From NCBI RefSeq assembly GCF_036365525.1, contig NW_027142279.1, positions 372,001 through 436,000 on the forward strand: DNA of 64,000 nt. The letters are read 5' to 3'. Source of the DNA: Heterodontus francisci. Taxonomy: Eukaryota. Positions 535 through 52,734 of this stretch are shown piece by piece. Numbering within the stretch: position 1 is the stretch's first letter; each line of letters starts with the position of its first letter. The notes under the pieces are model-generated. The model saw only the letters and a list, made by a program, of their open reading frames with translations, ran no database searches and was not told the DNA's origin. Made by a program: the position numbers and the translations under genes.

Positions 535-555
535 TGTCGTGGATGAACGGGAGTT

Positions 556-3869: not shown

Positions 3870-5974
3870 CACAGTGACTCAGAAAGGCGCCGGAGTTCAG
3901 TAAAAACTCTAAACATTGACAGAGCTCACTTGTGGGAGAGAGGCCTGTCTATCTGGGCTGTCATTCTATCACTCTGACTATCTGTCAGTTTCTATGTCTA
4001 CTGTTGAATGAACTGGCTCTTTGACAGAGTTGTCTAACTAGTTCCCATTCACTGACCAGTTCTCCATTACATTAATAAATCTCCCCTTCATCTACTTCTC
4101 CAATTGACATGTGAAAGTTACTATTGGATCGTCTTCCACCGCCATTTCAGTCAGTGTCCTCCACATGATAACAATTCACTGAGGAGAAAGATTCCACTCA
4201 TCTCCCACTCTGGTTCCTTTCCCAATTACCTTCAATTCTTGGTCCCTGGTTTATCGACCCTCCTGACAGACGATACCACCCTCTTGATACAGTTTCTCTA
4301 TCAAGACACTTCTCACCACGTCTTTCAAATCTCCCCTTACCCTCATTACTCTAATGGACACAAGTCCATACAAATAGGAAATGGTTGATCTTGGAACCTT
4401 TAATCATGTCTCTGATGATTCATACAGTGCAAAGGCGAGAAACCTCTCCAGATCCGTCTCTGACTGGAACACCTGAATACAGACGGCAGCTTCAGCATCT
4501 GTTCAAAACTGTTAACCCACTTGTCTCTCAGTCTTTCGGTATCTTTTGAAGAATTTTCACAATGACTGGAGTTCAGTGCGGTGAAGAACTTAACCCTATA
4601 ACTCCCGTTTAGCAGAACGCGGGGGTGGGGGGGTGGGGGGTGGGGGTGGGTGGGGGGGGGGCGTTGTGGGGAATGAAACTGTCTTGGCTCTGAAACAAGA
4701 CAGCAGGTTGACGGGTCTTATTGGATCATAGAATCATGCAGGATAAATCCAGGCCATTCAGCCCATCGATCCTGGCCTGGCTGTTCGAAAGAGCGACCTC
4801 CTCCCATCTCTCTTCATCTTCCCCTGTCAACAGATTCTTCACTTACTTTCTCACTCATGTATTTATTCAGCTCCCCTTTAACTGCATCGTCTCTATTCGA
4901 CCTCAACCCATTCCATTTGGTCTCTAATTCCACATTCTCACCGCTCCCTGGGTTAAAGAACCTCCTTCTGAATTCCCAATTGGATTTATTAAGGACTACC
5001 TTACATTTATGATCCCTGGTTTTCATCTTCCCTGTCCAATTACTCCCACTCCCTGTTCTTTCTGAATAACCCTGCACTTGATCTTGCAGCTTGTCTGCCT
5101 CCTTCCCGACATTACAACAGTGACTGCACTTCAAAATGTATTTGACTGGTTGAGGCTTGAGTAAAGCAGAGAGCTGTCGGCCCGAATGGCACGGATCTGT
5201 GCATTTACTTCCATCTATGTTCTTTGCCACAAGCGCCAACACGAGTCGAGTTGGGGAATGGAACCAATGACTGAAATAATTTCAGGGTCTGACACTGAAA
5301 GGCCTGCAGAATCAGTGCTTGCAGTTGCAGCTGGAGCCACTAGGTGCCAGTGTTACTCCACTGTCGCCGCTGCCGAGAACATGCCCAGACAGAGTGAGCT
5401 TTACCCACAGCAGCTCCACAGGTCAACTTGGCTGCTTCTGAAATGTTTCGCTTCTCAACTATTTCACACAAAATATTCTGGCAATGGAAAAAAACTCAAT
5501 GATTTGATATAAGGTAGATGAGCTTTTAATCTGATCGTTTTAGGGGCATTAAGTGATATTAATATCATTCCAACCTTGGAATATTTGCACCCAAAAGCCA
5601 ATTTGTAGATTTCCAGGTTCTATCTTACAATTGCATTGTCCCAGGTGTTTGTAGGAAACTAGGAGAGAGCCTGAATTTCCATCTATCGTGCCAAGTGTAA
5701 AGTAACATTTTCCCCCCATGCTCCCTGTTTCCAGGTGGAGTAACGGGAGAACTGGTGCTCACTTCATGTGATCAAGTGAGAGACAGTTTTCAGAACAGAA
5801 GGCTTCACACTGACATGTTGTGATATCCTCACCCCGCCGGTGGAGGGGCTGTATTAATCAGGTCTGTTCATTGAGGAGGTGAAATTCAGTATGTTGAGGT
5901 TTTAAGAGCAGGTTTGCTTTTGCAGAACATTGCAAAATAATAAATTAACCTGTAAGCTGGAGAGAGTTCACCTT

Positions 5975-11067: not shown

Positions 11068-11699
11068 CACAGTGACTGAGAGATGGCGCTGTTCAACAAA
11101 AACCCCAAAGGCAGCAGAAAACACCTGTGGAGGGAAAAACCGTTCGGTGCCTCGACCTACTGTTCGCTTATGCAGAGTGAAAGTGTTTGTTACAATAATA
11201 AGAGTTGAGTTATGATTGTAGTGACACACTAGATTTACAGGTACTGCCGAGGGTGCAATGAACGATTAATAAAGATGTCACGAGATCTCAGAATGTAACT
11301 ATCAGGAATCAATGACAATAATCTGGGTTTTTATGCACTGACCCTGTGTTTACCTTCTCCACAGGGACAGCAGAGGGGGATCCTGGACCATGGACCGCGT
11401 AATGGCTTTGAGAAGGATTTAGTGAGAAAACTGAAAGAGCAGGAGATCATGTAGATCCAGCTTGATATACATCAACAGGACAAGGACACCCACTTCGTTG
11501 GAGAGAGAAAGAGAGTGTATGTGTGTGTGAAAGAGAGAGTGATCTAGTGAGAGAGAGAGGAGAGTGAGACGAAAAACGACAGGCAGAGTTAAAGAGACTG
11601 AGACAGAGAGGGAGACAGAGATAGAGACAATGAGGGAAAATTACTGGGATACATCTGGAGAATGAAGGATTATTTTTGGGATTGATCTGGGAGATTGAA

Positions 11700-14331
11700 T
11701 GGGGTCAGTGAGTGGAGTCAATGAGTGGAGTCAGTGAGTGGGATCAGTGTGTGGGGTCAGTGAGTGGGGTCACTAAGTGGGGTCAGTGAGCGGAAGCAGT
11801 AAGTGGAGTCAGTGAGTGGAGTCAGTGTGCATAGGCAGTGAGTGGAGTCTGTACGTGGAGGAGTGAGTGGGGTCAGTGAGCGGGGACAGTGAGTTGATGT
11901 AGTGGTGGAGTCAATGAGTGGAGTCACTGAGCGGAGGCAGTGAGTGGAGTCTGTAATTGGAGTCCATATGTGGTGTCATTGAGCTGGGACAGTGAGTGGA
12001 GGCAGTGAGTGGAGTCAGTGAGCGGATTCAGTGAGACGGGACATTGAGTGGAGGCAGCGAGTGGAGTCAGTGAGCGGAGTCAGTGAGCGGAGGCACTGAG
12101 TGGAGTCTGTGAGTGGAGTCCTTGAGTGGTGTCTGTGAGTGTGGGATGGTGAGTGGAGTCAGTGAGCAGGGTTAGTGAGCGGGGTTGGTGAGCGGTGCCA
12201 GTGGGGAGTCAGTGAGTGGGATCAGTAACTGGGGTCAGTGAGCGGGGTTAGTGAGTTGGTTCAGTGCGTGGGGTCAGTGCGTGGAGTCAGTGAGTGGAGT
12301 CACTGAGTGATGTCACTCAGTGGAGTCAGTGAGTGAGGTCAGTGAGTGGAGTCAGTGTGTGGAGTCACTGAGTGGTGTCACTCAGTGAAGTCAGTGAGTG
12401 AGGTCAGTGAGTGGAGTCAGTGTGCGGGGTTAGTGAGCGGGGTAAGTGCGTGCGGACAGTGACTGGAGTCAGTGAGTGGAGTCACTGAGTGGAGTCACTG
12501 AGTGGAGTCACTGAGTGGAGTCAGTGAGCGGGGTTAGTGAGCGGGGTCAGTGCGTGCGGTCGGTGACTGGAGTCAGTGAGTGGAGTCACTGAGTGGTGTC
12601 ACTCAGTGGAGTCAGTGAGTGAGGTCCGTGAGTGGAGTCAGTGAGCGGGGTTAGTGAGTGGGTTCAGTGCGTGGGGTCAGTGCGTGGAGTCAGTGAGTGG
12701 AGTCACTGAGTGATGTCACTCAGTGGAGTCAGTGAGTGAGGTCAGTGATGGAGTCAGTGAGCGGGGACAGTAAGTGGAGTCAGTGAGCCGGGTTAGTGAG
12801 CGGGGTTAGTGAGTGGCATCAGCGAGTGGGGTCAGTGACCGGGTTACTGAGCGGGGTCAGTGCGTGCGGTCAGTGACTGGAGTCAGTGAGTGGAGTCAGT
12901 CAGTGGAGTCACTCAGTGGAGTCAGTGAGTGAGGTCAGTGAGTGGAGACAGTCAATGGTGTCAGTGAGTGGAGTCAGTGAGTGGGGTCAGTGAGTATGGA
13001 TAGTGAGTGGAGTCAGTGGGTTGGGTCAGTGAGAGGAGTCAGTGAGTGGTATATGTGAGTGGGGTCAGTGAGTGATGACAGTGAGTGGAGTCAGTGAGTG
13101 GGGTCAGTGAGTGGGGTCAGTGGAGTCAGTGAGTGGGGTCAAAGAGAGGAGTCAGTGACTGGTGTCAGTGGGTGGGGTCAGTGAGAGGAGTCATTGAATG
13201 GGGCCAGTGAGTGGGGTCAGTGAGTGGAGTCAGTGAGTGGTGTCAGTGAGTGGGGTCAGTGTGTGGGGACAGATGAGTGGAGTCAGTGAGTGGGGTCAAT
13301 GAGTGGGGTCAGTGAGCGGGGTCAGTGAGAGGGGTCAGTGAGTGGGGTCAGTGAGTGGGGACAGTGAGTGGGGACAGTCAGCGGAGTCAGTGAGTGGAGG
13401 CATTGAGTGGAGTCTGTGAGTGGAGTCCGTGAGTGGTGTCAGTGATCGGGGACAGTGAGTGGAGTCAGTGAGCAGGGTTAGTGAGCGGGGTCAGTGAGCG
13501 GGGTCAGTGGGGAGTCAGTGAGTGGGATCAGTAAGTGGGGTCAGTGAGTGGGGACAGTGAGTGGAGTCAGTGAACGGGATTAGTGAGCGGGGCTAGTGAG
13601 CGGGGTCAGTGAGTGTGGTCAGTGACCGGGGTTAGAGAGAGAGGACAGTGCGTGCGGTCAGTGACTGGAGTCAGTGAGTGGAGTCACTCAGTGGAGTCAC
13701 TCAGTGGAGTCAGTGAGTAGGGTCAGTGAGTGGGGTCAGTGAGTTTAGACAGTGAGTGGAGTCTGTGAGTGGTGTCAGTGAGTGGCGTCAGTGAGTGGGG
13801 TCAGTGAGTGTGGACAGTGAGTGGAGTCAGTGAGTTGAGTCAGTGAGAGGAGTCATTGAGTGGTGTCAGTGAGTGGGGTCAGTGAGTGGGGACAGTGAGT
13901 GGAGTCAATGAGTGGGGTCAGTGAGTGGTGTCAGTGAGTGGGGTCAAAGAGAGGAGTCAGTGACTGGTGTCAGTGGTTGGGGTCAGTGAGAGGAGTCAGT
14001 GAGTGGGGTCAGTGAGTGGGGTCAGTGAGTGGAGTCTGTGAGTGGGGTCAGTGAGTGGGGTCAGTGAGTGTGGACAGTGAGTGGAGTCACTGAGTGGGGT
14101 CAGTGAGAGGAGTCAGTGAGTGGTGTTAGTAAGTGGGGTCAGTGAGTGGGGACAGTCAGTGGAGTCAGTGAGTGGGGTCAGTGAGTGGGGTCAGTGAGCG
14201 GGGTCAGTGAGAGGGGTCAGTGAGTGGGGTCAGTGCGAGAGGACAGTGAGTGGAGTCAGTGAGAGAGGACAGTGAGTGGAGTCACTGAGTGGTGTCAGTG
14301 AGCGGGGTCAGTGAGAGGAGTCAGTGAGTGG
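11700..14331 (+). repeat. 13-bp G-rich minisatellite (GGRGTCAGTGAGT)n
   Basis: About 2.6 kb of degenerate tandem units running into an N-run. Confidence 0.95.
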
Positions 14332-20817: not shown

Positions 20818-21043
20818 ATGTATCTGTTACTGGGTCTGATGACCATCTCCCACCATAAGGAACTTTATGAAAAATAATGCTGCTTAATAATTTTCTTTAC
20901 TTTATAATTTCCTTCTCTCCTTGACGCTTTCATTCCTTCCTTCCATCCTTCTTCCTCGATAATCCAGAGTGTCCTGGCGTCATTTTCGACCCATCTCTTT
21001 CCCAGATGTGAACTCACAGACTGTCCTCCAGAGTCCCACCACT
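20818..21043 (+). pseudogene. TRBV: V relic V6: leader plus first about 12 codons of the V exon; rest of exon and RSS deleted
   Basis: Leader MYLLLGLMTISH with donor mutated to ATAAGG. CCCAG|ATGTGAACTCACAGACT at 21006, then a jump to ACCTGTGG, which follows the RSS in intact paralogs. Confidence 0.8.
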
Positions 21044-21389
21044 ACCTGTGGGAGATAAAGTTGCGCTGTACAGAGACTTGATTTTTGTGCAGGGCGATGG
21101 TGTTTGTGACAATAAGAAGGGACCCATGAGAATAAAAGTGAGAGAATAAATATAGAGGCACTGGTAAAGATGTCACTAATAGCCTGCTTCTGTTCCCTAA
21201 AACCTTCTGTCTTTCTATGAATGACTAACGGTGATGAACCCCAAATTGAGAAGATGTAAATATCAGGAAGGAATGATCACTAAAAGCATTTAGGTTTCAT
21301 CTCCTGACACTATCTTCATTCTCCACAGGGACAGCAGAGAGCGCTCTTGGACCGTCAAACACACAACAGCCTGCTCCCTGCTTATTCAG

Positions 21390-22410
21390 GACACAACATG
21401 GGAACATAGGGGATAGGAGAAGGAGTAGGCCATTTGGCTCATCGAACCGACTCATGGCTGATCACCTACCTCTGAGTCATTTCCCCCCACTATCCCCATC
21501 TCCCTTGATGTCATTAGTATCTAGAAATCAATCGCTTTCTGTCTCGAACATGCTCAATGCAGTCAGCTTACAAAGACATCTTTGGTAGAGAATTCCAAAG
21601 ATTCACAACTCTCTTAGTTAAAGAAATTCCTCCTCATCTCAGTCTTCAATGGCCTGCACCTTATTCGGAGACAGTGTATCCTGATTCCAGACTGAATACG
21701 CTATCCACATCCGTCGTGTCACGTCTTGTCAGAATTTTGTAAGTTTCAATGCGATCACCTCTTATTCTTTGGAACTCCAGAGAATACAGACCCAGTTTCT
21801 GTAATCGCTCTTCCTAAAACAAATCCACCCTGCCAGGGATTATTTTGGTGAATCTCTGCTGCATTCTCTCTTTGGCAAGTATATCCTTCCTTCGATAAGG
21901 AGAGCCTAATGGGCGGCACAGTGGCGCAGTGGTTAGCACCGCAGCCTCACAGCTCCAGGGACCCGGGTTCGATTCCGGGTACTGCCTGTGTGGAGTTTGC
22001 AAGTTCTCCCTGTGTCTGCGTGGGTTTTCTCCGGGTGCTCCGGTTTCCTCCCACAAGCCAAAAGACTTGCAGGTTGATAGGTAAATTGGCCATTATAAAT
22101 TGTCACTAGTATAGGTAGGTGGTAGGGAAATATAGGAACAGGTTTGTTGGGAATATGGGATTAGCGTAGGAATGGTATAAAAAATGGGTGGTTGATGTTC
22201 GGCACAGACTCGGTGGGCCGAAGGGCCTGTTTCAGTGCTGTATATCTAATCAAAACTGTACACAATACGAGAGGTGCATTCGCATCAAGGTTCTATACAA
22301 TTGCAACAAGACATTTTTGCACCTGTACTTAAATCCCATTGCAATGAAGGCCAGCATACCATTCGCCTTCGGAATTGCTTGCTGCACCTGCATATTAGCT
22401 GTTAGTGTTG
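21390..22410 (-). mobile_element. Decayed CR1-like LINE fragment interrupted by a SINE
   Basis: Minus ORFs KANGMLAFI..LQLYRTL..YCVQF and QRFTKIIPG. Confidence 0.75.
21911..22250 (+). mobile_element. tRNA-derived V-SINE (HE1-like)
   Basis: A-box GTGGCGCAGTGG, B-box GGTTCGATTCC, V-domain GTGGAGTTTGC..CCGGGTGCTCCGGTTTCCTCCCACA and CR1-like tail GGGCCGAAGGGCCTGTT. Confidence 0.88.
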
Positions 22411-23024
22411 TGAGTTCATAATGTTGTGTGTGATGCAACATAAATGAGAAGCGTGGAGTCCAGTTGGTTGAAGATCACAAACAAGTCTATTTACAGCTGA
22501 ACTATAATACACAGTGCTGAGCTAACTATTTACAGGACCTGCCTGTAGGTGTTCCAGTTACAGAGTGACACTGGCTACGAGTCACGTGACTACGTGCTGG
22601 AATTTATCTTATTAGCATCCTAAGATCTTAAAGGGACATGAGAGAGAGATGGAGAGACGGACAGAGAAAGACAGAGGGAGAGAGAAAGATTAACACCAAC
22701 GAATACAATAACAACTTCAGGAAAAAACACCAACAAATGCAGCAGCAACTTCAGCAGGCGACTAGCACCAAAAAATGCAACAACTTCAGCTGGAGACTAC
22801 CAGCAACAAATGCAGCAACAACTTCAGCAGGAGACTAAGAGCAACAAACGCACCAACAACTTATACTTGCAGCCAAACAGATAGACAGGGGTGTGGCTTC
22901 CAATCAGGGAGGAAGGAGTTGTGAAAACCAAATCACTTACTTCAGTCTTCATGTAGCTCCTCACAGGACTCAAAGCTCTTGTTTCCACTGATTTACAGAT
23001 TACAAACACAGCTTCCAGTAGAAG

Positions 23025-23122
23025 ATGTATCTGTTACTGAATCTGATAGCGTTATTTCAATGTAAGGGATCTTTTTCCCAAGTAACTTTTTGTGTTGACA
23101 TTCAACATTTATCTTTTCGCAG
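23025..23122 (+). pseudogene. TRBV: Orphan V leader V7 (23025-23061) with intron and acceptor but no V exon
   Basis: MYLLLNLIALFQ|GTAAGG is homologous to the other leaders. Acceptor TTTTCGCAG ends at 23122 and is followed by the CTCF-motif repeat. Confidence 0.7.
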
Positions 23123-23134
23123 TACCCGTTTCCC

Positions 23135-23520
23135 GCAATTAGGGGGAGCAGTTGCTGGAGGTGCAGCTCTCATTGCCAACCAACAGGGGGCAGCAGTAGA
23201 TGGAGGTGCAGCTCTCATTGCCCACCAACAGGGGGCAGCAGTAGATGGAAGTTCAGCTCGCATTGCCCACCAAAAGGGGGTCAGCAGGAGCTGGAGGTGC
23301 AGCTCTCTTTGTCTACCAACAGAGGGCAGCAGTAGACGGAGGTGCAGCTCTCTGCCCACCAAAAAGGGGGCAGCAGTCGATGGAGGTGCAGCTCTCAGTG
23401 CCCACCAACAGGGAGCAGCAGTAGATGGAGGTGCAGCTGTCATTGCCCACCAACAGGGAGCAGCAGTAGATGGAGGTGCAGCTGTCATTGCCCACCAACA
23501 GGCGGCAGCAGTAGATGGGA
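23135..23520 (+). repeat. 45-bp tandem repeat, about 9 units, CTCF-consensus motifs
   Basis: Unit CCACCAACAGGGGGCAGCAGTAGATGGAGGTGCAGCTCTCATTGC, homologous to the unit at 556-907. Confidence 0.85.
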
Positions 23521-23689
23521 TTTCAGCAACAAGAACACTAAATGTTAGAAATCCTCAGTGCATCAGGCAGGATCTGCAGAGAGTAAAACAGAGCTATCGC
23601 TTCACATCAGAACCGGCAAACATGAGAAGCGTTTTGAGCAACTTAAATGGATGTTTGAGCGTGAAGAAATGCAAAAGAGACAGTCTGTG

Positions 23690-24117
23690 ATAGGGTGGGG
23701 AGGGGAGGGACAGATAGAGAGATAGAGGGAGACAGGGAGAGATAGAGAGGCAGAGAGAGAGAGAAAGGCAGAGAAAGAGATACATAGAGAGAGGAACATA
23801 AAGACAAAGACCCACAGAGACAGAGAGAGAGACAGATAGATGGAGATCGAGTAATATAGCGTTTGAAAAACAGAGACAGAGTGAGGCAGAGAGACGGAGA
23901 TGGAGTGACTGCGAGAGACTGAGAGAGAGATAGAGACAAAGAGAGAGAGACTGAGAGAGAGAAAGGCAGAGAAATTGACATATATAGAGAGAAACACAGA
24001 GACAGAGACCCACAGAGACAGAGAGAGAGACAGATAGACGGAGTTCGAGTAATATAGCGTTTGAAAAAGAGAGACAGAGTGAGGCAGAGAGACAGAGATG
24101 GAGTGAATGCGAGAGAA

Positions 24118-26657: not shown

Positions 26658-26738
26658 TTTTATTGAACTGCTTTGTAACATCGTGGGAGGTCAGTATAGC
26701 ACCGTGTTACATTCCTGTGCTCACCCCGTGCAGGAACT
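26658..26738 (+). other. TRBD: Candidate TRBD segment GGAGGTCAGTATAG (26686-26699) with 5' 12-RSS and 3' 23-RSS
   Basis: 5' side: TTTTATTGA (26658-26666), 12 nt, CATCGTG (26679-26685). 3' side: CACCGTG (26700-26706), 23 nt, GCAGGAACT (26730-26738). Lies about 270 nt upstream of the J. Confidence 0.75.
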
Positions 26739-26939: not shown

Positions 26940-27016
26940 GGTTTCAATGGTGGGTTCACTCTCTGTGGTGAACGATCCATCTACCGTCGGAGGTAGGACC
27001 CGACTCGCCGTTCTGG
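26940..27016 (+). pseudogene. TRBJ: TRBJ-like segment (coding 26968-27016) with 12-RSS; FGxG degenerated to VGGR
   Basis: GGTTTCAAT (26940-26948), 12 nt, CTCTGTG (26961-26967). Reads VNDPSTVGGRTRLAVL followed by phase-1 donor G|GTACGT. Confidence 0.8.
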
Positions 27017-28729: not shown

Positions 28730-30062
28730 GCAACCTCCTCCAGCCCCTACAACCCTCCCTATCTCTGTAACATCCTCCAGCCCCTACAGCCCTGCCTAAC
28801 ACTGTGACCTCCGACAGCTCATATACCCCTCCCTATTTCTGTAACATCCTCCAGCCACTGCACCCTCCCTATCTCTGTAACATCCATCAGCACCCCACAT
28901 CCATCCCTGTCTCTGCAACATCCTCCAGCCCCTACACCCTCCCTATCTCTGTAACATCCTTCAACCCCTACACCACTCCCTATCTCTGTAACCTCCTTCA
29001 GCTCCTATACCCCTCCCCATCTCTGTAACATCATCCAGTCCCTACAGCCCTCCCTATCTCTGTAACATCCTCCAGACCCGATAGCCCTCCCTATCTCAGT
29101 TACCTCCTCCAGCTCCTACACCCCTCTCTATCTCTGTAACATCCTCCAGCCACTACCGCCCTCCCTATCTCTGTAACATACTCGAGACCCTATAGCCCTC
29201 CATATCTCTGTTACCTCCTTCAGCACACACAACCATCCCTATCTTTGTAAACCCTTCCAGCCCCCTACACCCCTCCCTATCTCTGTAACATCCTCCAGCC
29301 CCCCACACCGCTACCTATGTCTGTAACTTCCTCCAGCCCCCGACACCCCTTCCTATCTCTGTAACATTCTCCAGGCCCTACACCCCTCCCTAGCTCTGTA
29401 ACCTCCTTCAGCCCCTACACCCCTCCCTATCTCTGTAACATCCTCCAGCACCTACAGGCCTCCCTATCTCTGTAACCTCCTTCAGCTCCTACAGCGCTCC
29501 TGATGTCTGTAACATTGTTCGGCACCCACAGCCCTGCCTATCTCTGTAACATCCTCCAGCACCTACAGCCCTCCCTATCTCTGTTACCTCCTCCAGCCCC
29601 TACACCCCTCCCTATCTCTGTAACCTGCTTCAGCCCCTACATCCCTCCCTATCTCTGTTACCTCCTCCAGACCCTACACCCCTCCCTATCTCTGTAACCT
29701 CCTCCAGCCCCCTACAACCCTGCCGAACTCTATAACCTCCTCCAGCCACTACCATCCTTTCTATCTCTGTCACCTCCTCCAGCCCCCTACACCCTCCCTA
29801 TCTCTGTAACCTCCTTCAGCCTCTACAACCCTCCCTATCTCTGTAACCTCATGCAGCCCCCACACCCCTCCCTATCTCTGTAACCTCCTCCAGCACCCTA
29901 CACCCCTCCCAACTCTGTGATCTCCTACAGCCGCCTACACGCCTCCCTATATCTGAAACCCCTCCAGCCCCTCCAACCCTCTTTATCTCTGTAACCTCCT
30001 CCAGCCCCAACAACCCTCCCTATCTCTGTAACGTCCTCCAGCCCCCTGCTCCCTATCTCTGT
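28730..30062 (+). repeat. About 37-bp C-rich minisatellite in the J-C intron
   Basis: Unit ATCTCTGTAACCTCCTCCAGCCCCTACACCCCTCCCT over about 1.3 kb. Confidence 0.92.
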
Positions 30063-30302: not shown

Positions 30303-30641
30303 AGAGGCGGACCAAGAGGTTAAGCATCCCACCATGACCGTTTTTGAGCCATCGGACGAAGAAATCAGGGCCCTAAGAAAGCCACCTTTGTCTGCCTGAC
30401 CAGTGGCTTCTTCCCGGACTACGTGAAGTTCTCCTGGACAGGGGGGCAACGAGGAGATCGAGACGAAGGATGTGCTGACTGACAGGCGGGTAAAGGATGA
30501 TGCTGGCCGCTACAGCGTGGACCAGTAGGTTGTAGGTTCCCATGGCCGAATGGGCCCGCAAGCAGTATTCCTGCAAAGTGACCCATTACAGTAAAGACGG
30601 CGCGGAGATTTCTCAAGATGCCAAGATCAGCAGCAAGGCAG
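30303..30641 (+). pseudogene. TRBC: TRBC-like exon 1 (C1-set Ig domain), frameshifted
   Basis: Pieced translation EADQEVKHPTMTVFEPSDEEIRA/KATFVCLTSGFFPDYVKFSWTG/NEEIETKDVLTDRRVKDDAGRYSV/TSRL*VPMAEWARKQYSCKVTHYSK..SSKA|GTGAGT matches the TRBC motifs VFEPSxxEI, KATLVCLxxGFFPD and SRL. Frameshifts near 30375, 30441-30446 and 30520; TAG at 30533. Confidence 0.9.
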
Positions 30642-30994
30642 GTGAGTGTCTGCAATGCCTGGAATCACCTCTGCTTCTCCCGAGCCCAAAGCAAGGAAGC
30701 TATACTGAACCTTTATCAATACAATGTTACAGCCGAGAGGGAGGATGTGAAGGTGTTAGAGAGGGTGCACAAAATATTCACGACAAAGGTTCCAGGGATG
30801 AAGGAATTCAGTTAGGTGGATAGCTTGGGAAAGTCTACATCATAGGTGAGACTTAAGAACACTGGAAGAGGCCGAGGCGATTCAGCCGTTGAAGCTTGTT
30901 CCACTATTCTGTTGCATAAAGATTAATCGCGACAATTACTCTATTTGACGCCGCGGCTCAGTAACCATCAATAACCTGATGTTCACCCAAATGG

Positions 30995-31066
30995 TTCACC
31001 ACTCAGAGACAGAGAGTGAGGGAAAAAGATAGAGAGAAAGACAGAGAGAGAGTGAGAGAGAGAGAC

Positions 31067-31097
<31 letters not shown>

Positions 31098-32890
31098 AGG
31101 AGAGAGAGAGAGAAATAGAGAAAGAGACACACAGAAAGAGAAAGGGAGAGAGACAGACAGGGAGATAGAGACAGAGAGTGACACAGAGACAGACAGACAG
31201 TGNNNNNNNNNNNNNNNNNNNNNNNNNNNNNNNNNNNNNNNNNNNNNNNNNNNNNNNNNNNNNNNNNNNNNNNNNNNNNNNNNNNNNNNNNNNNNNNNNN
31301 NNNNNNNNNNNNNNNNNNNNNNNNNNNNNNNNNNNAAAGAGAACGNNNNNNNNNNNNNNNNNNNNNNNNNNNNNNNNNNNNNNNNNNNNNNNNNNNNNNN
31401 NNNNNNNNNNNNNNNNNNNNNNNNNNNNNNNNNNNNNNNNNNNNNNNNNNNNNNNNNNNNNNNNNNNNNNNNNNNNNNNNNNNNNNNNNNNNNNNNNNNN
31501 NNNNNNNNNNNNNNNNNNNNNNNNNNNNNNNNNNNNNNNNNNNNNNNNNNNNNNNNNNNNNNNNNNNNNNNNNNNNNNNNNNNNNNNNNNNNNNCAGAGA
31601 GAGCGACGGAGATCGAGCGTGACACACAGAGAGACATGGAGACAAAAACAGAGAGAAAAGGAGAACGAGAGAGAAAGAGTCAGACAGACAGAGAAAGACA
31701 GACAGAGACAGTGAGAGATACACAGACAGAGAGAAAGAGAGAAAGACAGAGACAGAGGGAGGCAGAGAGACACAAAGAGAGAGAGAGAGGGAAACTGGGA
31801 GAAGACAGAGATTGAGAGAGACAGACAGAGAGTGACAGGGACAGAGAAACAGAAACAGNNNNNNNNNNNNNNNNNNNNNNNNNNNNNNNNNNNNNNNNNN
31901 NNNNNNNNNNNNNNNNNNNNNNNNNNNNNNNNNNNNNNNNNNNNNNNNNNNNNNNNNNNNNNNNNNNNNNNNNNNNNNNNNNNNNNNNNNNNNNNNNNNN
32001 NNNNNNNNNNNNNNNNNNNNNNNNNNNNNNNNNNNNNNNNNGAGAGACAGAGAGACAAGGAGAGAAGGAGAGCCATAGCCAGAGAGAGAGACAGAGACAG
32101 GAAGAGAAAGAGAGGCAGAGAGACAACGGGAAAGACAGAGACAGTGAGTGAGAGAGAGAGGCAGAGAAAGACAGAAACAGAGAGACAGAAAAAGGGACAG
32201 AGACAAAGACAGAGAGAAATGGAGCGAAAGAGAGAGACAGAGACAGAGAGAGAGACACGTACAGAGAGAGACACATGGTCAAAGAGAGAGAGACTGAGAG
32301 AGAGACACAGAAAGAGAGAGAGAGAGAGAGAGGAAAGGAAAGAGAGAGACATAGAGAGAGAAAGGCNNNNNNNNNNNNNNNNNNNNNNNNNNNNNNNNNN
32401 NNNNNNNNNNNNNNNNNNNNNNNNNNNNNNNNNNNNNNNNNNNNNNNNNNNNNNNNNNNNNNNNNNNNNNNNNNNNNNNNNNNNNNNNNNNNNNNNNNNN
32501 NNNNNNNNNNNNNNNNNNNNNNNNNNNNNNNNNNNNNNNNNNNNNNNNNNNNNNNNNNNNNNNNNNNNNNNNNNNNNNNNNNNNNNNNNNNNNNNNNNNN
32601 NNNNNNNNNNNNNNNNNNNNNNNNNNNNNNNNNNNNNNNNNNNNNNNNNNNNNNNNNNNNNNNNNNNNNNNGAGAGTGACGGAGATAGAGTGTGACACGC
32701 AGAGAGACATGGAAACAAATACAGAGAGAAAAGGAGAACGAGAGAGAGAGACACAGACAGACAGAGAAAGACAGACAGAGAAAGACAGACAGAGAAAGTG
32801 AGAGATACACACACAGAGAGAAAGAGAGAAAGACAGAGACAGAGGGAGGCAGAGAGACACGCAGAGAGAGAGAAAGAGAGACAGAGAGAC
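30995..32890 (+). repeat. AG-rich low-complexity tract with N-runs (C intron 1)
   Basis: Direct inspection. Confidence 0.9.
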
Positions 32891-34020
32891 GTTTGATAAG
32901 GTTCCCCACGGTAGGCTATTGCAGAAAATACGGAAGTATGGGGTTGAAGGTGATTTAGAGCTTTGGATCAGAAATTGGCTAGCTGAAAGAAGACAGAGGG
33001 TGGTGGTTGATGGCAAATGTTCATCCTGGAGTTTAGTTACTAGTGGTGTACCGCAAGGTTCTGTTTTGGGGCCACTGCTGTTTGTCATTTTTATAAACGA
33101 CCTGGATGAGGGTGTAGAAGGGTGGGTTAGTAAATTTGCGGATGACACGAAGGTCGGTGGAGTTGTGGATAGTGTCGAAGGGTGTTGTAGGGTACAGAGG
33201 GACATAGATAGGCTGCAGAGCTGGGCTGAGAGATGGCAAATGGAGTTTAATGCGGAGAAGTGTGAGGTGATTCACTTTGGAAGGAGTAACAGCAATGCAG
33301 AGTACTGGGCTAATGGGAAGATTCTTGGTAGTGTAGATGAGCAGAGAGATCTTGGTATCCAGGTACATAAATCCCTGAAAGTTGCTACCCAGGTTAATAG
33401 GGCTGTTAAGAAGGCATATGGTGTGTTAGCCTTTATTAGTAGGGGGATCGAGTTTCGGAGCCACGGGGTCATGATGCAGCTGTACAAAACTCTGGTGAGG
33501 CCGCACCTGGAGTATTGCGTGCAGTTCTGGTCACCGCATTATAGGAAGGATGTCGAAGCTTTGGAAAGGGTGCAGAGGAGATTTACTAGGATGTTGCCTG
33601 GTATGGAAGGAAGGTCTTACGAGGAAAGGCTGAGGGACTTGGGTTGTTTTCGTTAGAGAGAAGGAGGAGGAGAGATGACTTAATAGAGACATACAAGATA
33701 ATCAGAGGGTTAGATAGGGTGGATAGTGAGAGTCTTTTTCCTCGGATGAGGATGGCAAACACGAGGGGACATAGCTTTAAGTTGAGGGGTGAAAGATATA
33801 GGACAGATGACAGAGGTAGTTTCTTTACGCAGAGAGTAGTAGGGGCGTGGAACGCCCTGCCTGCAACAGTAGTAGACTCGCCAACTTTAAGGGCATTTAA
33901 GTGGTCATTGGATAGACATATGGATGTAAATGGAATAGTGTAGGTCAGATGATCGGCGCAACATCGAGGGCCGAAGGGCCTGTACTGCGCTGTAATATTC
34001 TAATTCTAAAAAAAAAAAGA
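32890..34020 (+). mobile_element. 5'-truncated, little-decayed CR1-clade LINE in C intron 1
   Basis: 245-aa RT ORF (GVPQGSVLGPLLF, KFADDTKV) continued after one frameshift; 3' tail GGGCCGAAGGGCCTGT..(ATTCTA)2 and an A-run. Confidence 0.93.
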
Positions 34021-34197
34021 GAGAGAGACAGAGAGAGAGAGACAGGGAGAGAAAGAGAGACAGAGACAGAAACCTGGATGCAATGCACCAATCTCTGTGC
34101 AGAGAATTTTCCCCCGATTTATGTTCTTGCTGTGATATGAAAACTGTGATTTATGCACAAATAATTGAAGTTTTTTCCTCTTTTTGATTTCTTGCAG

Positions 34198-34215
34198 GCC
34201 TCTGTGAAGGGAATG
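34198..34215 (+). pseudogene. TRBC: TRBC-like exon 2 (18-nt hinge exon with interchain Cys)
   Basis: TTCTTGCAG|GCCTCTGTGAAGGGAATG|GTGAGA reads (G)LCEGN in phase 1/1, the same size as mammalian TRBC exon 2. Confidence 0.78.
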
Positions 34216-34380
34216 GTGAGAACGTTCAATATTTTATCAGTTTGCTATAATCTGTCTTTGTCTCTCTCTCTCTCACACTCTCGCTCTCTCATGCACATAC
34301 ACACACACTTATGGAATGTACATAATGATTAAGTTGGATTTTAGGGCCAGTGACTATGGTCTTTCTTGTCTGTCTTTCAG

Positions 34381-34490
34381 TGGAGCGGATACAGAGGCAA
34401 CAGATTGTGGCAAGAGCTACTTACACTTTACTCATCTCCAAGAGCTTCCTGTATATGGCAAAGATCACCATCGTGCTGCTCAAGGGGAAG
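34381..34490 (+). pseudogene. TRBC: TRBC-like exon 3 (connecting peptide and transmembrane)
   Basis: CTTTCAG|..(V)ERIQRQQIVARATYTLLISKSFLYMAKITIVLLKGK|GTATGA carries the YxxLxxKxxLY beta-type transmembrane motif. Confidence 0.85.
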
Positions 34491-34597
34491 GTATGAGAAT
34501 TACGAGGACATTTTGCTGACGTGTAAAACGGACCCCCTTCTCTATTCTGTAAACTTCAATCCTCTCCAGGTTTTCAGGCATCAGTGATGCACATTCC

Positions 34598-34862
34598 CCG
34601 CACTGCCTGTGCGGAGTTTGCAAGTTCTCCCTGTGTCTGCGTGGGTTTTCGCCGGGTGCTCCGGTTTCCTCCCACATCCAAAGACTTGCAGGTGATAGGT
34701 AAAATGGCCGTTGTAAATTGCTCCTCATGTAGGGAGGTGATCGGGAATATGGGATTACTGGAGGGTTATTATAAGTGGGTGGTTGTTGGTCGGCACAGAC
34801 CCGGTGGGCCGAAGGGACTGTTTTGGTGCTGTATCTCTAAATAAATAAAAAAATAAATAAAT
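34598..34862 (+). mobile_element. 5'-truncated V-SINE (HE1-like)
   Basis: V-domain and GGGCCGAAGGG tail ending in (TAAA)n. Confidence 0.85.
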
Positions 34863-35464
34863 AGGGTGAATCACTGAACCCAGTCCATGTCATTGTGCAT
34901 GTGATTCGACAGTGAAACCAGACTGTCTATTAGCACCACTGTGTCGACTGAAATCCATCTAGATCCTGCACCAAGGGGTCCTGAATCTCCCCCACCCTCT
35001 CACATGAGGACAGAGTGAGCGATAGAGAAGGAGAAAGAGAGAGACGTAACTAGAGAGTAATAGAGAGAATGTGAAGGTGGGGGGGGGGGGGAGGGACAGA
35101 GAGCGAGAAAGAAAAAAACAGAGAGAGAGAGACAGAAAGAGAGACAAAGAGATAGAGTGACAGAACCAGTGAGGGAAATGCTGAGAGAGTTGGAGAGAGT
35201 GAGAGAAAGGGATAGCTAGAGATAAATTGTGTTTGTGTGTGAGAGAGTGAGAGATAGAGAGAGAGAGAAATAGATAAATATAGAGAGTGACAGATATAGA
35301 GAGAGAGAGTCAGGGGAGATAAAATGAGAGAGAAGGGCATATCGACAGAAACAAAGTGAAATTGACATCCGAGGGATAAACAGAGAGTGAGAGAGTGTGT
35401 CTGTATTACATATATAAAGAGAGAAAGAGTTTGGGGTAATGAAAGAGAGACAGAGTGAGAAAGG

Positions 35465-36155
35465 AAGTGTCACTGAAAGTGGCAACGCAGGTGGAAAAGA
35501 TAGTCAAGAAGGCACACGACATGCTTGCCTTCATCGGTCGGGGCATAGAGCATAAAAATTGGCAAGTCATGCTGCTGCTGTACAGAACCTTAGTTAGGCC
35601 ACACTTAGATTATTGCTTGCAATTCTGGTCGCCACACTACCAGAAGGACGGGGAGGCTTTGGAGAGGGTACAGAGGAGGTTTACCAGGATGTTGCCTGAT
35701 CTGGAGGGCATTAGCTATGAGGAGAGGTTGGATAAACTCGGATTGTTTTCACTGGAACGACGGAGGTGGAGGGGCGACATGATAGAGGTTTACAAAGTTA
35801 TAAGTGGCATGGACAGAGTGGATCGTCAGAAGCTTTTTCCCAGGGTGGAAGAGTCAGTTACTAGGGGGACATAGGTTTAAGGTGAGAAGGCCAAAGTTTA
35901 GAGGGGATGTGCGAGGCAAGCTCTTTACACAGAGGGTGGTGAGTGCCTGGAACTTGATGCCAGGGGAGGTCGTGGAAGCAGGTACGATAGCGACGTTTAA
36001 GAGGCATCTTGACAAATATATGAATAGGAAGGGAATAGAGGGATACGGTCCCCGGAAGTGCAGAACGTTTTCATTTAGGCAGGCATCAAGATCGACGCAA
36101 GCTTAGAGGGCCGAATGGCCTGTTCCTGTGCTGTACTGTTCTTTGTTCCTTGTTC
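35465..36155 (+). mobile_element. CR1-clade LINE 3' fragment in C intron 3
   Basis: ORF LYRTLVRPHLDYCLQFWSP..ERVQRRFTRM and tail GGGCCGAATGGCCTGTTCC. Confidence 0.9.
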
Positions 36156-36742
36156 TTTGAAGATTGAGGCAGATAGAGAGAGGAAGAGAGAGAGAGAGAG
36201 GAGCGTTTAAGGGAGAGATAGACAGACACAGAGACACAGAGAGAGGGAGACAGGAAGAGACAGAGGGAGAACCTAAGAGAGAGAAATAGACAGAGAGAAC
36301 ATACGGGAGAGACAGTGAGAGTGGGAGGGACAGAAGGCGAGAGAGAGAGAGGAGAGTGCAAGGGAGAGACAGAGTGAGACAGAGACACAGGCAGAGAGAG
36401 AAACACATAGACAAAAAGAGAGAAAAAGAGAGACAGAGAGAGAAAGAGAGAGAGAGAGAAGCATGTATGGGAGAGAGAGAGAAAGCCCTACTCCCCTACC
36501 CTTTCCTCATCACCTTGCAAAATTTACCCTTTCAAGTCTTAATCCAATTGTCCGCTTTTTCAGGCACTGCTTTCCAGATGACAACAACGCTCTGAGTTTC
36601 GAAAAGAACTCACCCTTCCCTCTGGTTCTTGTTAAATGCCATGAAATGTGTTTCCACTGACTCGAGATCCTTCCCAGGGCATTGTAGAAGAAATATTCCA
36701 TGACTGACTCAATCTTTTTCCTTCCTTTTTATCGCCTTCCAG

Positions 36743-36775
36743 ATTTCAGGAAAGTTGATGAAAAGTTTCGATTAA
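36743..36775 (+). pseudogene. TRBC: Candidate TRBC-like exon 4 (cytoplasmic tail ISGKLMKSFD*)
   Basis: Strong polypyrimidine acceptor CCTTCCAG; phase 0 matches exon 3; short basic tail; AATAAA downstream. Confidence 0.6.
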
Positions 36776-37157
36776 CTAAGCGGGGCCAAAAACTCTGCAA
36801 CAGGGCACTCGTCACAACATATCCTTCAGAAATATGGGAAAGGAGGAGGAGGCTATTGGGTCATATCCCGATCATTGATATGTTGTCATTTTCTATTGGT
36901 TAGTAACAGTTCGGCATCTGGCAAAACCCATTAGGTCTTTCAGAGGAATTGGATTACAACATAATTAAAATTTATGTCTCAATTGCTATTCAATTCATTT
37001 AACCACTTGTCAGCTGGTTAGCTGAGCTCGTTAATCTACTTTAACTAGTTGAGATGTCTCCTGTCCATCTTTGAACCGTTTGCACACTGAGCTTCATTTC
37101 TTTAAGTTGAGCTTCTTCATGAAGCACCCTTCTCTCTCTTGTGACATCAAGCAGGCT

Positions 37158-40843: not shown

Positions 40844-41303
40844 CACAGTGACTCGGAGAGATGAAGCAGTTCAACAAAAACACCAAAGGCAGCAGGAAAC
40901 ACCTGTGGAGGATAAAATTGTTCTGTGCCTCACTTGTGCAGAGTGATAGTGTTTATTATAATAAAAAGAATTGAGTTATGATTGTAGTGACAAATTGAAT
41001 TTACAGATACTGGCGAGGGTGCAAAGAACGATTAATAGGGATGTCACGAGTCAGGGAGACACAGATAGAGCCAAAGACAGCGAGACAGTGAGAGAGACAT
41101 AATGAGAGAGAGAGAGAGTGGACAGCGAGAGAGAGAAGGAGGGAAAGAGAGACAGAGATTTAAAAAAAGCCTGAGACAGATAGGGAGACAGAGATAGAGA
41201 GAAAGACAGTGACAGAGAAAGAACTAAAGAGATAGTAAAAGTAAGAGATTGGGAGAGAGAGAGAGAGAGAGAGTCGGAGAGAAAGGGAGAGAGCGGAACG
41301 TAA

Positions 41304-41347
<44 letters not shown>

Positions 41348-41533
41348 AGATTGGCAACCAATTTGATTGTGATTTGTTGAACTGGGTGAATGGGCGTCTC
41401 CAACATTGTATAACTTCCTACTGCTCTTCATGTTCCTCCCAATGATTTGTAAAGAGTGGATTTGGACCCTCACCAGACTCTAAGCTCCTGCTCTCACTCC
41501 TGTGTCTATTAAGAGAACAAGTTGTACTGAAAG

Positions 41534-41981
41534 AAGTATCAGTTACTAGGTCTGATAATCCTGTTTCATTGTAAGTGAGTATGAAATACTCGTTAATAAC
41601 TTTCCTCTCCTCTCCCTGTCTTCCTTTCATTCCCAGAAGTTCCCTGTTTACTGATCTCCTCCTCTCTCCTTCTCTCTCCCAGATGTGAACTCACAGACTC
41701 TCCGCCAGACTCCCGCCGCTGTCTCCAGATTTCCTGGGAAAGGAGTGGAACTGAGGTGCACTGTGGAGGGGAGCAGCAGTAGCATCGAAATGTACTGGTA
41801 CAGGCAAGAGCCGGGGAAGGAGCCGCTGTTGATGTTTTACTCCAATACTGCTAACTATGTGGATCCAGAGGGGACGGTGGATGGTTTCACCGCTGAGAGA
41901 CCGACTAGCTCCCAGTTCAACCTGGAGTCCTCCAACCTGCGGGAGAATCACTCGGCCGTGTATTTCTGTGCCTGGTGTCTT
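41534..41981 (+). pseudogene. TRBV: TRBV30-like V9: intact V exon 41683-41981 and RSS, start codon lost
   Basis: AAG at 41534 replaces ATG and an in-frame TGA lies at 41528. Donor GTAAGT at 41571. RSS CACAGTG 41982-41988, 23 nt, ACAAAAACC 42012-42020. Confidence 0.85.
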
Positions 41982-44302
41982 CACAGTGACTCAGAGAGAT
42001 GGAGCAGTTCAACAAAAACCCCAAAGGCAGCAGGAAACACCTGTTTCAGATAAAACCAGGCGGTGCTGCATCCTGTTGGGTGTTTTTTATAATTGGGAAC
42101 ATGTTTTTCGCAAGATGACAGGGCGGATTTAAAAAGAAAGTGACAGGTTAGATATAGAAACCCAGGGGAATTATGAAATAGACTTTACAGGAATTATATC
42201 GGAACATAGAGGTTAAAGTTATCAAGATAGATAGAACATCGGGGGATCTTTACTCCAGAAAGGAGAAGACTGAAGGGTAAACCTTCAGCGGTCTTGGAGA
42301 GATTATTAAAGATTTCAATATGTGAAATGAAGATCAGATAAAAACAGATAGATAGATAGATAGACAGACAGACAAACAGATAGATAGACAGATAGCTAGA
42401 TAGGTAGATAGATAAAGAGAGATAGATAGCGAGATAGATAGATCCATACAATACAGGCATACAAACGGTGTGGTTTTATGTCACTGTGTTTTCTTTCTCC
42501 AGAGGGACAGCAGAGTGCGCTGTAGGACCATGATAAACATCAGAGTCTGGGACACACTTTAACAGTGACCTGGGAACAAAAGGAGACCATTCATCACCAC
42601 GAAAACATTACGCCCTTCAATGAGATCATGACTGATCAATAACTTTCCGTCGCTCTCTCTCCATCCTTCTCTCTCCCACTCTCTCCATCCCTCTCTCCCC
42701 ATCTCTCTCTCTCTCCATCCCTCTCTCTCTCCCACCATCTCTCTTTCCCTCTCCCTCCATCCATCTTTCTCCATCCCTCCATCTCCATATCTCTCCATCC
42801 CTCTCTCTCCATTCCTCTCTCTCACTCGAGCTACCAAGCCAGTGTAAAATGACAGAATACCAATTAGCATCCCTGTCTTTTACAGGGGCAATGACTGTCT
42901 GTCTATCTAGCTCGCTATTTCTCTACCGATATGACTTTGCCTCTATCTCTCTATTTCTCTACCTCACTTTATATCTACCTGTCTAGCTGACAGTCTCTCT
43001 ATCTATCTCTCTAACTGGTTATCTATCTCTCTGTCTCTCTATCTATCTATCTCTCGAACTGGTTATCTCTCTCTCTGTATCTCTATCTATCTAACTCTAT
43101 CTTTAGGTGAATACAGTTTGTATGAACTAATTAAACATGCTGCAGTAATGTAATAAATGACCATCTTTTCATAGAGTTTCTATACATTGACCAGTAGATG
43201 ATGTGGTTTGTCATCATTTATCTATCAAAATCCTCTATGATCTTCAATATCTGTATCACATCTACCATTAACCTTCTCTGCTCTGAGGAGAGAAACCCCC
43301 AACTTCTCCAGTCTCTCCACAGTAACTGAAGTCCCTCATCCCTGGTACCAGTCTGGTTAATCTCCCTCTAACCTTCACTACACAGAGCCGAACAACCCCC
43401 CAATGCCCAGGAACTAACTCAGTTCAAAACCCTTAACCACCTGAGTGCTGTTCCACACTGTTCAAAGGCGAGACCCCTCTCCAGATACCTTCATCTCTGG
43501 GACCCCTGACTCCTGACAGCGAGTTCAGAAGCTGCTGAAAACTGTTTACCCACTTTGATCTCAGACTCCAGTCACATTTGATGTGTTCTTCAAAGAACCT
43601 AGCAATTCAGACCAGTGAACAATTTAACCCTTTAACTCCCATTCAGCAAGGAGGTATGGTAGCAGAGCAGTTATGTTACTGGACTAGTAATCCAGAGGCA
43701 TGGACTAATGATCCCCAGACATGAGTTCAATTCTCACCAGGGGCAGAAATGGAATTTAAATTTAATTCATTAAATAAATCAAAAAATTATCATGGAAAGT
43801 ATCAGTAATCCTGAACATGGAGTGTCATAAATACCCAACGTATTCACTGATGACATTCAGGGAAGGAAATCTGCTGTTCCAACCCGGTCTGGCCTATATG
43901 TGACTGCAGACCCACAACAATGCGGTTGACTATTAATTGCCCCCCGATATGGCCCAGCAGGTATTCCTGAAGATGGTTCACCGCCACCTTCTCAGGGGCA
44001 ATAAGGGATGTACACACTCTCTGGGATTAGAGGGTTGTTTCCCTGAATTCTACTCTATCAAAGCGCTTTCTGAAATGTGAACACCTCTATTCAATCTCCC
44101 CCTATCCTCCTGTGTTGTATCATTCTACAACATTGCTATGTAAAGTAATGGGGTGGAGCAGAGTGTCGCAGTAAGTGACTGCCAATCTCAATAACAACCG
44201 GATGCTGGGTATTTAATTGGATATAATATAGAAACCGCCTGCAAGTTTGTTGCTGAAAACGCCACACGTTCACACATCGAGTTAGTATCGAATGAAGAAA
44301 TC

Positions 44303-45168
44303 ATGTTGCATGAAGTTCTCTATCTAATCTTGATGGCTGCACTCTTCCCACGTAAGTCAAAGTCAGAAACTGTGCAGAATAATGTATTGTAATGTCAGCG
44401 GTGATTCTGTCCGGAACACTCCTGTGTCAGAGTCTAACTCCAGAACACTTGAGGTCAAAGTCAAAACTAATACCCCAGGTGTCAGGACCGAGGGAGTGCT
44501 GCACTATCGCAGAGGTAGTACTGAGGGAGTGCTGCATTGTCGCTGAGGCAGGACTGAGAGAGTGCTGCACTGTCACAGAGGCAGCGCTGAGGGATTGCTG
44601 CACTGTCGCAGAGGCAGTACTGAGGGAGTGCTGCACTGTCGCAGAGGCACTATTGAGGAAGTGCTGCACTGTCGACGAAGCAGTACTGAGGGAGTGCTGC
44701 ATTGTCGCAGAGGCAGTACTGAGGGAGTACCTACATTGGTTGCATGCCCTTTCTGATGTCCTGAGGACCTGAACGGCGCTATATTAATGTAAGCCCTTTA
44801 TTTCTTGCAATGCAGCTCCTGCTCCAATCCATTATTGACTGAAATAATAATCTAATCGATGTTCCATTCCACAGGAATACTCTCCTCCTATGTGGAACAG
44901 TCGCCCTCTATCCTATCGATTGCAGCAGGAGAGTCGACAACATTCAGATGCACGCTGATCAATACTGGCTATTCCCAAATGTACTGGTACAGACAACAAC
45001 CAGACAGGGCACCTGACGTTCTGTTCTATTCTGCTACAGAAGGGTCTGTTACCAATTACACGTCCGAGTCATTTAAGGCAGTCCGAGCCAGCAATACACT
45101 GTTTACTTTGGCACTGAGAGACGCCAATCCATCTCACACCGCTGTCTATTTCTGCGCTTGTAGTCTTG
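44303..45168 (+). CDS. TRBV: V segment V10 (family A), apparently functional: leader 44303-44351, V exon 44875-45168
   Basis: MLHEVLYLILMAALFP|GTAAGT. Exon SYVEQSP..FRC..MYWYRQ..YFCACSL. RSS CACAGTG 45169-45175, 23 nt, GCAAAAACC 45199-45207. Confidence 0.9.
44490..44730 (+). repeat. 33-bp tandem repeat in the V10 leader intron; the tail of the same repeat is at 1-60
   Basis: Unit GAGGGAGTGCTGCACTGTCGCAGAGGCAGTACT, about 7 copies. Confidence 0.9.
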
Positions 45169-45227
45169 CACAGTGTTTGAAAAAGCGGATCCGCAGCTGC
45201 AAAAACCTGCAGCGGATGAATGGGAGT

Positions 45228-45448
45228 TCAGTGCTTATCATCTACCGTCAGGGGGAAGCAGTGGATTGAATCTCATTGCTCATCTTCCACCAGCAGGGTG
45301 CAGCAGTAGATTGAATCTCAGTGCTCATCTTCCACCAGCAGGGGGCAGCAGTAGATTGAATCTCAGTGCTCATTTTCCGCCGACAGGGGGCAACAGTAGA
45401 TTGAATCTCAGTGCTCATTTTCCGCCAGCAGGTGGCAGCAGTAGATTT
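45228..45448 (+). repeat. 45-bp CTCF-motif repeat, about 5 units, after the V10 RSS
   Basis: Paralog of 556-907. Confidence 0.85.
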
Positions 45449-47199: not shown

Positions 47200-47264
<65 letters not shown>

Positions 47265-48726: not shown

Positions 48727-48759
<33 letters not shown>

Positions 48760-48935
48760 CATTGTCAACCTACTCCACTCTAACTTGTTGAGCTGGGCGT
48801 CACCATCTCTGCATCACTTCCTAATGATTTCCCTGTTCCTCCCAATGATTTGTAAAGAGTGGGCTGGTTATTGACAACACTCATCACTCCTGCTCTCTCC
48901 CCTTTGCTGATTCAGCGGGCAGCTTAAAGTAAAAG

Positions 48936-52730: not shown

Positions 52731-52734
52731 TCTA

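Follow-up and report, generated by a model that had tools for sequence, protein, structure and literature searches.

An orphan V leader followed by a D-facing array of CTCF-like repeats in a TCR-beta-like locus of Heterodontus francisci

We found that an orphan V leader in a TCR-beta-like locus of Heterodontus francisci leads directly into a tandem array of 45-bp units that resemble two-part CTCF sites. In our preferred reading, to which we give a probability of roughly 0.55, this element is the relic of a V gene that has lost its RSS, and CTCF bound to its D-facing array would stall loop extrusion coming from the D-J-C side without presenting a RAG target. The original prediction had taken the leader to be the remains of a dead V gene, and this was upheld: it is homologous to V leaders, the array stands directly behind it, and the sequence from the leader to D yielded no trace of a V exon or RSS. 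By its strand and ancestry, the array is a V-type, D-facing site, opposite in direction to mouse Tcrb CBE1 and 5'PC.

The window, meaning the whole stretch of 64,000 nt that was analysed, covers a TCR-beta-like locus of a cartilaginous fish. Among the named relatives of its V exons, shark gene models scored best, the seven full-length exons of the main V family were 44-49% identical to the V of a TCR-beta-type V-J-C protein (P0008), and TCR beta chains were the top single-domain matches in a comparison with solved structures. The layout is that of TRB, with V genes carrying a 23-RSS, a D (12/23), a J with a 12-RSS, and a C with a TCR-beta-type transmembrane segment, although the D, J, and C of the orphan-leader cassette are degenerate (Table 1). 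V genes with a 23-bp-spacer RSS end at 496, 3870, 8628, 11068, and 19424, and a further V set lies 3' of the C region, from 40844 to 57671. It was noted that the V set at 38000-64000 shares the orientation of the first set, lies 3' of the C gene, and partly repeats 1-26000, which gives the locus the look of tandem V-D-J-C cassettes. The copies are 86% to 99% identical in blocks, which suggests gene conversion. Multi-cluster TRB genes were reportedly described in a shark in the 1990s. Several V genes appear defective: those at 10581 and 48936 have a GTG start and a GG donor, with a shifted nonamer at the RSS (11068 and 49422), the V at 41535 has lost its ATG, and the V ending at 8627 (8176) has no tryptophan in its WYRQ motif.

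Table 1. Coordinates of the features discussed, numbered from the first letter of the window.
Feature	Position	Strand	Basis
V exon adjoining array A1 (RSS 496-534)	202-495	+	
Array A1, 8 homologous 45-bp units beginning about 20 nt past the nonamer of a V with an open frame	554-906	+	
Degenerate V-type promoter and 5' UTR	22865-23024	+	Comparison with other V promoters
Orphan V leader exon, MYLLLNLIALFQ plus 1 nt, donor GTAAGG	23025-23061	+	Homology to neighbouring V leaders
Intron-like stretch of 61 nt, ending in CGCAG at the upstream-motif position of the first unit	23062-23122	+	
Array B1, 9 units of 44-46 bp, all facing D	23118-23518	+	
Degenerate D candidate, core 26686-26699, poor RSS nonamers	26679-26738	+	
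Single J with 12-RSS, open frame reading VGGR at the FGxG place	26940-27016	+	
TCR-beta-like C exon, at least 3 frameshifts and a stop (pseudogene)	30304-30642	+	
Transmembrane exon	about 34380-34490	+	
Array A2, 5 units following the RSS of the open-frame V at 45169	45227-45447	+	
Copy 2 of the orphan leader, identical at 37/37	60836-60872	+	
SINE-like insertion within the intron of copy 2 (93% identity with the one at 21913-22257)	60920-61270	+	
Array B2, 5 units, 4 with cores of 12.5-18.8 bits	61285-61508	+	

The prediction of about nine 45-bp units behind the leader was confirmed in array B1. Tandem Repeats Finder gave a period of 45, 8.4 copies, and 87% matches at 23141-23518, and the count comes to nine once a degenerate first unit, from 23118, is included. 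The bit scores given by the CTCF core matrix used here, and the letters taken for the upstream motif, are approximate. On this scale the units scored, in order, 6.9, 18.8, 18.8, 3.9, 18.0, 7.7, 12.6, 12.6, and 13.6 bits; six of the nine thus hold a CTCF-like core of at least 12.5 bits (12.6-18.8) and three are degenerate (6.9, 3.9, and 7.7). TGCAG had been said to lie 13 nt before the core in most units, and it does so in all six of the good ones (6/9). The 16-nt core quoted in the prediction was found in its exact form in only two of the nine units. TGCAG and the core together span 34 bp, matching the 33/34-bp span reported for the two-part CTCF motif, and sites with both motif halves are described there as the strongest and most conserved class (PMC3368268). 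The claimed resemblance to the CTCF upstream motif held, with full two-part geometry in 6/9 units by this matrix and these letters; the core threshold was reached in 6/9 units of B1 and 4/5 of B2.

Among 20,000 shuffled units, 36 contained a site of at least 13 bits and none of these also had TGCAG at 12 or 13 nt. A 27-nt stretch of the unit, allowing up to three mismatches, was matched 15 times in the window, always on the plus strand and within four arrays, compared with an expectation of 0.00 from 100 shuffles. It was noted that the fourth core base differs from the CTCF consensus in every B unit. Since the two-part motif is bound by CTCF in lamprey (PMC5504073) and skate TAD borders carry a CTCF orientation code (PMC10115646), shark CTCF very likely reads the unit. 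A 57-residue translation of array B had no match in 1.84 billion proteins and the exact 27-nt unit was present in no metagenome contig, both searches being uninformative on shark genomes. Other tandem repeats in the window comprise 38-bp units at 22687-22862, upstream of the orphan promoter and fewer in copy 2, a 13-bp satellite at 11696-14331, a 37-bp repeat at 28732-30045 in the J-C intron, and a 33-bp repeat at 44483-44728 in the intron of an array-bearing V. No CTCF-like site of at least 8 bits was found in any of these.

An alternative is that the array is inert debris, the relic of a V-associated site left unbound in closed or methylated chromatin, with its unit number drifting by slippage to no effect. 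The unit number does differ between the copies (9 and 5), some units are degenerate, the cassette is pseudogenic, and the region is rich in other minisatellites. Selection on the CTCF-like core was not detected either between A and B, where 12/14 core and 21/31 non-core positions were the same (p = 0.19), or within B, where four variants fell among the 14 core sites and 13 among the remaining 31. Motif scans alone were also reported to predict CTCF binding poorly in Hox clusters (PMC5504073). Set against this, scores of about 18 bits together with a properly spaced upstream motif are reached by three units of copy 1 and two of copy 2, the B consensus contains no CpG, and sites with both halves belong to the strongest and most conserved class (PMC3368268). 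We consider debris of this kind an unlikely explanation.

The origin of the unit was examined through its V-associated homologues. The A and B consensus units are alike at 33 of 45 nt on a common strand. Sites of at least 13 bits in the window numbered 19, all on the plus strand and 17 of them within the four arrays. The background over both strands had a mean of 2.9 and a maximum of 6 in 20 Markov replicates, so the two sites outside the arrays are not above chance. No reverse-strand site of at least 13 bits was found in the window, and one may lie beyond its end. Weaker plus-strand sites (8.5-11.8 bits) follow six other V genes or relics among the 13 examined, which are paralogues rather than independent cases, and five of the 13 had no site within 700 nt. 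All the arrays face D-J-C as V-associated CBEs do, and a place just 3' of a V RSS is occupied by the A arrays but not by array B. The A arrays (554-906 and 45227-45447) outscore array B, reaching up to 22 bits. A single CTCF-like site of 13.7 bits, with TGCAG at 12-nt spacing, was also observed at 5317-5352, at a distance of 1.4 kb on the 3' side of the pseudo-V at 3870.

In whale shark, the gene model XP_048476706.1 shares 65% identity with the V at 202-495 and continues through its own RSS into 13 further residues. The comparison back-translates a predicted protein in a register set by eye, and in it a single site and an array would look the same. Residues 140-152 can encode 29, 28, 30, and 30 of 39 nt of the A1, A2, B1, and B2 units, respectively, values reached by 0/3,466 other 13-mers and 0/5,000 shuffles; the best-case core score of 14.1 bits was reached by 5/3,472 other 7-mers. 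The unit begins 15 nt after the anchor in the model and 14 nt after it in the window. The catshark gene model ends before the array position. This evidence concerns the V-RSS site, not an orphan leader-array in other species, and it suggests that the unit is an old V-RSS-associated CTCF-like site. Together with the whale-shark unit, the A arrays form the stronger lead for ancient V-associated CTCF sites, the unit being apparently conserved in whale shark at an equal distance from the RSS.

These comparisons also bear on whether array B could be a dispersed satellite or transposon repeat inserted at a V acceptor, its likeness to CTCF sites and V arrays being incidental, or a product of misassembly. 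CTCF sites are spread through repeats in lamprey and mammals (PMC5504073, PMC3368268), assembly gaps lie near D, and the unit counts cover the 64-kb window only. However, all 15 window matches stand at V or V-relic positions on one strand, the whale-shark read-through puts the unit at an equal distance from the RSS, and contigs of a DNA run (X1) cross the intron-array junction with 0-1 differences, confirming the junction. We regard an insertion or assembly artefact as very improbable.

The leader and donor had been described as intact, and we agree, since 23025-23061 shows homology to neighbouring V leaders and the donor is GTAAGG. The orphan leader is a member of the V family that has no arrays in the window, not of the array-bearing family. 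The promoter-like sequence proposed upstream was retained in part. A GC box at -136, an ETS-like box at -129, and, in copy 1 only, a CCAAT box at -125 were recognized, and the region was 69% identical over 111 nt to that of the V at 18969 (leader counted in). However, it is only partly V-like: the GC and ETS boxes stand at shifted places, and the TGATTTG-type box present in all 10 other V promoters among the 12 promoter regions examined is missing. Rfam gave no matches in 21800-23800.

The acceptor received a mixed answer as well. The AG at 23121-23122 follows a pyrimidine-rich stretch (11 of 14 upstream bases) and is the best of 13 AGs in 23062-23210, but it doubles as a repeat-register position of the first unit. 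CGCAG at 23118-23122 keeps the register of the array, preceding a degenerate core by 13 nt and the next TGCAG by 44 nt; the copy-2 acceptor (61285) is likewise in register, and the five bases preceding CGCAG are not repeat-like. This coincidence of the acceptor with the first unit's upstream-motif position fits the deletion of a V exon and RSS between two CAGs. Insertion of the repeat into a V gene is disfavoured because the acceptor AG already belongs to the first unit. We infer that the simplest history is a deletion joining the terminal CAG of a V intron to the upstream-motif CAG of the first unit. Homology between the 3' flanks, which could fix the deletion point, is weak (A1 against B2, p = 0.02; A1 against B1, p = 0.28). 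In favour of this history, the spacer of the first unit in copy 2 agrees with the A consensus at 11/13 and with the B consensus at 10/13. Derivation of the orphan intron from the 5' part of an ordinary V intron was unsupported for 8/8 introns (p 0.34-0.89); when both ends of these eight introns were compared, one of 16 ends fell below p = 0.05 (p = 0.026, uncorrected).

A similar internal loss, of most of the exon, can be read directly in the pseudo-V at 20818. In this pseudo-V (20818-21110) and its counterpart at 59067-59350, the exon ends after about 40 nt and joins sequence that is usual 3' of an RSS; the donors are ATAAGG (copy 1) and GTAAGG (copy 2). A hypothetical product spliced from the orphan leader to the array would run for 18 codons before a stop in copy 1 and for 22 in the other copy.

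A different alternative gives the relic a function of its own, as an exapted control element: a dead V kept by selection as a cassette boundary and germline promoter, with a spliced sterile transcript that opens D-J, in the manner of IGCR1 plus TEA or PD-beta-1. The second copy had been offered as a sign that the element is kept. It does carry an identical leader (37/37) and an array of five units, and the donor and acceptor are intact in both copies. Identity between the copies is 99% at the last intact V, 94-95% at the pseudo-V, 92-93% around the orphan, and 86% in the orphan intron, which differs at 6/42 positions; an identical leader has p of about 0.05 at the local identity of 92% (835/908). 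However, neighbouring leaders, dead and live, are 36/37 identical and hence nearly as well kept, which does not support reading the second copy as a sign of retention, and with a local identity of 92% copy 2 is a recent duplicate that does not count as independent conservation. Evidence for retention of the orphan leader-array is thin. The SINE-like insertions at 21913-22257 and 60920-61270 are private to each copy. Contigs of run X1 that carry copy-2 differences cross the copy-2 insertion point without the SINE (less than 31 nt on one side; not formal bridging), which suggests a polymorphic insertion or a further paralogue.

Spliced reads joining 23061 to 23123 had been proposed as a check. 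Twelve sequencing runs of one organism, none recorded as RNA and none of a ChIP type, were available, and four runs of one sample were compared over 22865-23210. The interval 22865-23008 was uncovered in every run, the DNA run included; X6 gave 0 contigs and X7 one, and in run X5 the orphan leader and intron had no matching contig, such holes being no evidence. The 23061^23123 joint was found in none of the four runs over the compared interval, and what the check did yield was one low-depth contig end at 23123. This 99-nt contig (depth 2.7), from the presumed RNA run X5, ends exactly at 23123 with no loose end listed, whereas contigs from the DNA run of the sample shared with X5 cross that position. 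The end could represent a splice branch in the assembly graph or chance; as one contig from one study, in a run that may hold DNA, it falls below the threshold for a weak hint. Array contigs in X5 had a depth of 2-4, and the leader of another V of the orphan's family a depth of 225. A close relative of the 10581/40361 leader was abundant in the same run. In the DNA run X1, apparently three intron versions were seen (contig depths 18, 24.7, and 27), with seven listed differences that are exactly those of copy 2. The summed contig depth over the array reached 640, against 18-29 for single versions, a figure that is not a copy number and hints at tens of units, not thousands.

The segments downstream of the array bear on the same alternative. 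As originally predicted, the array lies about 3 kb 5' of D: the D candidate begins 3,160 nt downstream, of which 469 are N, and the array is the last element before it. The D candidate's RSS nonamers have four mismatches each at the canonical spacer. FGxG is the motif expected in J. The D-J-C behind copy 1 is a pseudogene, and that of copy 2 lies beyond the window. The idea of a working boundary in the orphan-leader cassette is not supported, since the J and C behind copy 1 are broken. The C gene and the C of P0008 are identical at 45/148 residues, and the C gene (30304-36780) may represent a diverged TRB paralogue and not a decayed main C copy; a 26-residue C piece, too short to classify, had its best matches among Ig light chains at E 0.08 or worse.

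The exapted element thus has in its favour a place about 3 kb before D like that of mouse Tcrb CBE1, the apparently three intron versions, the X5 contig end, and reports that tandem CTCF sites insulate in engineered and natural cases (PMC7087399). Weighed against these, the array has a single orientation of V type, while IGCR1 is divergent and Tcrb sites face the V genes, the J and C behind copy 1 are dead, and no splice joint was seen in the four runs. We consider selection for such a control role doubtful.

The RSS-less V relic that we prefer would have arisen in several steps. An old V-RSS-associated CTCF site would first have turned into a 45-bp minisatellite. A deletion would then have joined the intron CAG to the first-unit CAG and removed one V exon with its RSS, or, alternatively, a longer deletion may have run from the intron of one V to the array of the next; the cassette would have been duplicated afterwards. 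CTCF would bind several units head to tail, the 45-bp period comparing with a 40-bp footprint, and stall extrusion. As no RSS stands beside the array, we propose that the paused loop could not be captured by RAG. The effect would be shorter loops around D-J-C and damped scanning into the upstream V genes. Retention of the array may be passive, and there may be selection for the loop effect.

A broader proposition is that sharks gut a V gene to obtain an RSS-less CTCF-minisatellite boundary, with a germline promoter from the leader, at the V-D border of each TRB cassette; we think this unlikely. If true, it would give a concrete route to elements of the IGCR1 and TEA type and would trace CTCF-guided V(D)J architecture back to the ancestor of jawed vertebrates. 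The work cited here on CTCF control of V(D)J recombination is in mouse, and no literature on CTCF sites in shark antigen-receptor loci was found in a search whose coverage mostly excluded subscription journals. The window provides defined test objects, a 45-bp full-footprint unit repeated five to nine times with an RSS (array A) or without one (array B). One published study is said to have shark CTCF ChIP-seq. If the units are bound, the A/B pair would test whether a V-side array promotes its own V and turns insulator once the RSS is lost, and whether such logic predates the split of sharks and bony fish. If unbound, array B would be an ordinary pseudogene remnant.

TEA is the germline promoter of Tcra and is not known to be V-derived. 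It resembles the orphan leader in combining promoter-like sequence with a CTCF site upstream of joining segments (site in PMC5859386), whereas the orphan-leader promoter is putative and known from its sequence. The Igh 3' CBEs and the Pcdh enhancer arrays are likewise clusters of sites pointing in the same direction (PMC7087399, PMC6439775). They differ in consisting of separate sites with spacing between them, which lie at the 3' locus end and face the V genes, while array B is a V-side minisatellite.

Igh IGCR1 also places CTCF sites between the last V and D. Array B occupies this position, the interval from 19463 to the D candidate at 26679 containing no V RSS (469 N from array to D), and it faces as the downstream IGCR1 site does. 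However, IGCR1 is a divergent pair with demonstrated insulator function (PMC6439775), whereas array B has one orientation, derives from a V leader, and is known from sequence alone; no reverse site of at least 8 bits was found between 19373 and 28459.

In mouse Tcrb, 18 V-region sites converge on three sites flanking D-J (PMC10772921), one of which, CBE1, lies 3 kb upstream of D-beta-1 beside a repetitive tract, much as array B does (PMC4291525, PMC10772921). The likeness to Tcrb boundary elements suggested in the original prediction fails on direction: the mouse boundary sites, including 5'PC and CBE1 as single sites, point to the V genes (PMC10772921, PMC5859386), whereas array B faces D, is not convergent to the V-region sites, and shares strand and ancestry with the V-associated arrays. 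Being on the strand of the V-side arrays, it is not the equivalent of Tcrb CBE1.

In direction, array B agrees with the V-region sites. All V-region sites of mouse Igh and Tcrb are reported to face D-J-C (PMC6439775, PMC5859386), and the proximal VH CBEs (VH81X, VH5-1) and Tcrb V-region CBEs resemble the shark arrays in lying 3' of a V in this direction. The A arrays begin about 20 nt after the RSS, comparable to the mouse proximal VH sites, which are found no more than 68 bp from the RSS and determine how much their own V is used (PMC6439775). Unlike the mouse VH CBEs, the shark arrays consist of five to nine head-to-tail copies with a 45-bp period, and array B carries this structure with neither an RSS nor a V exon.
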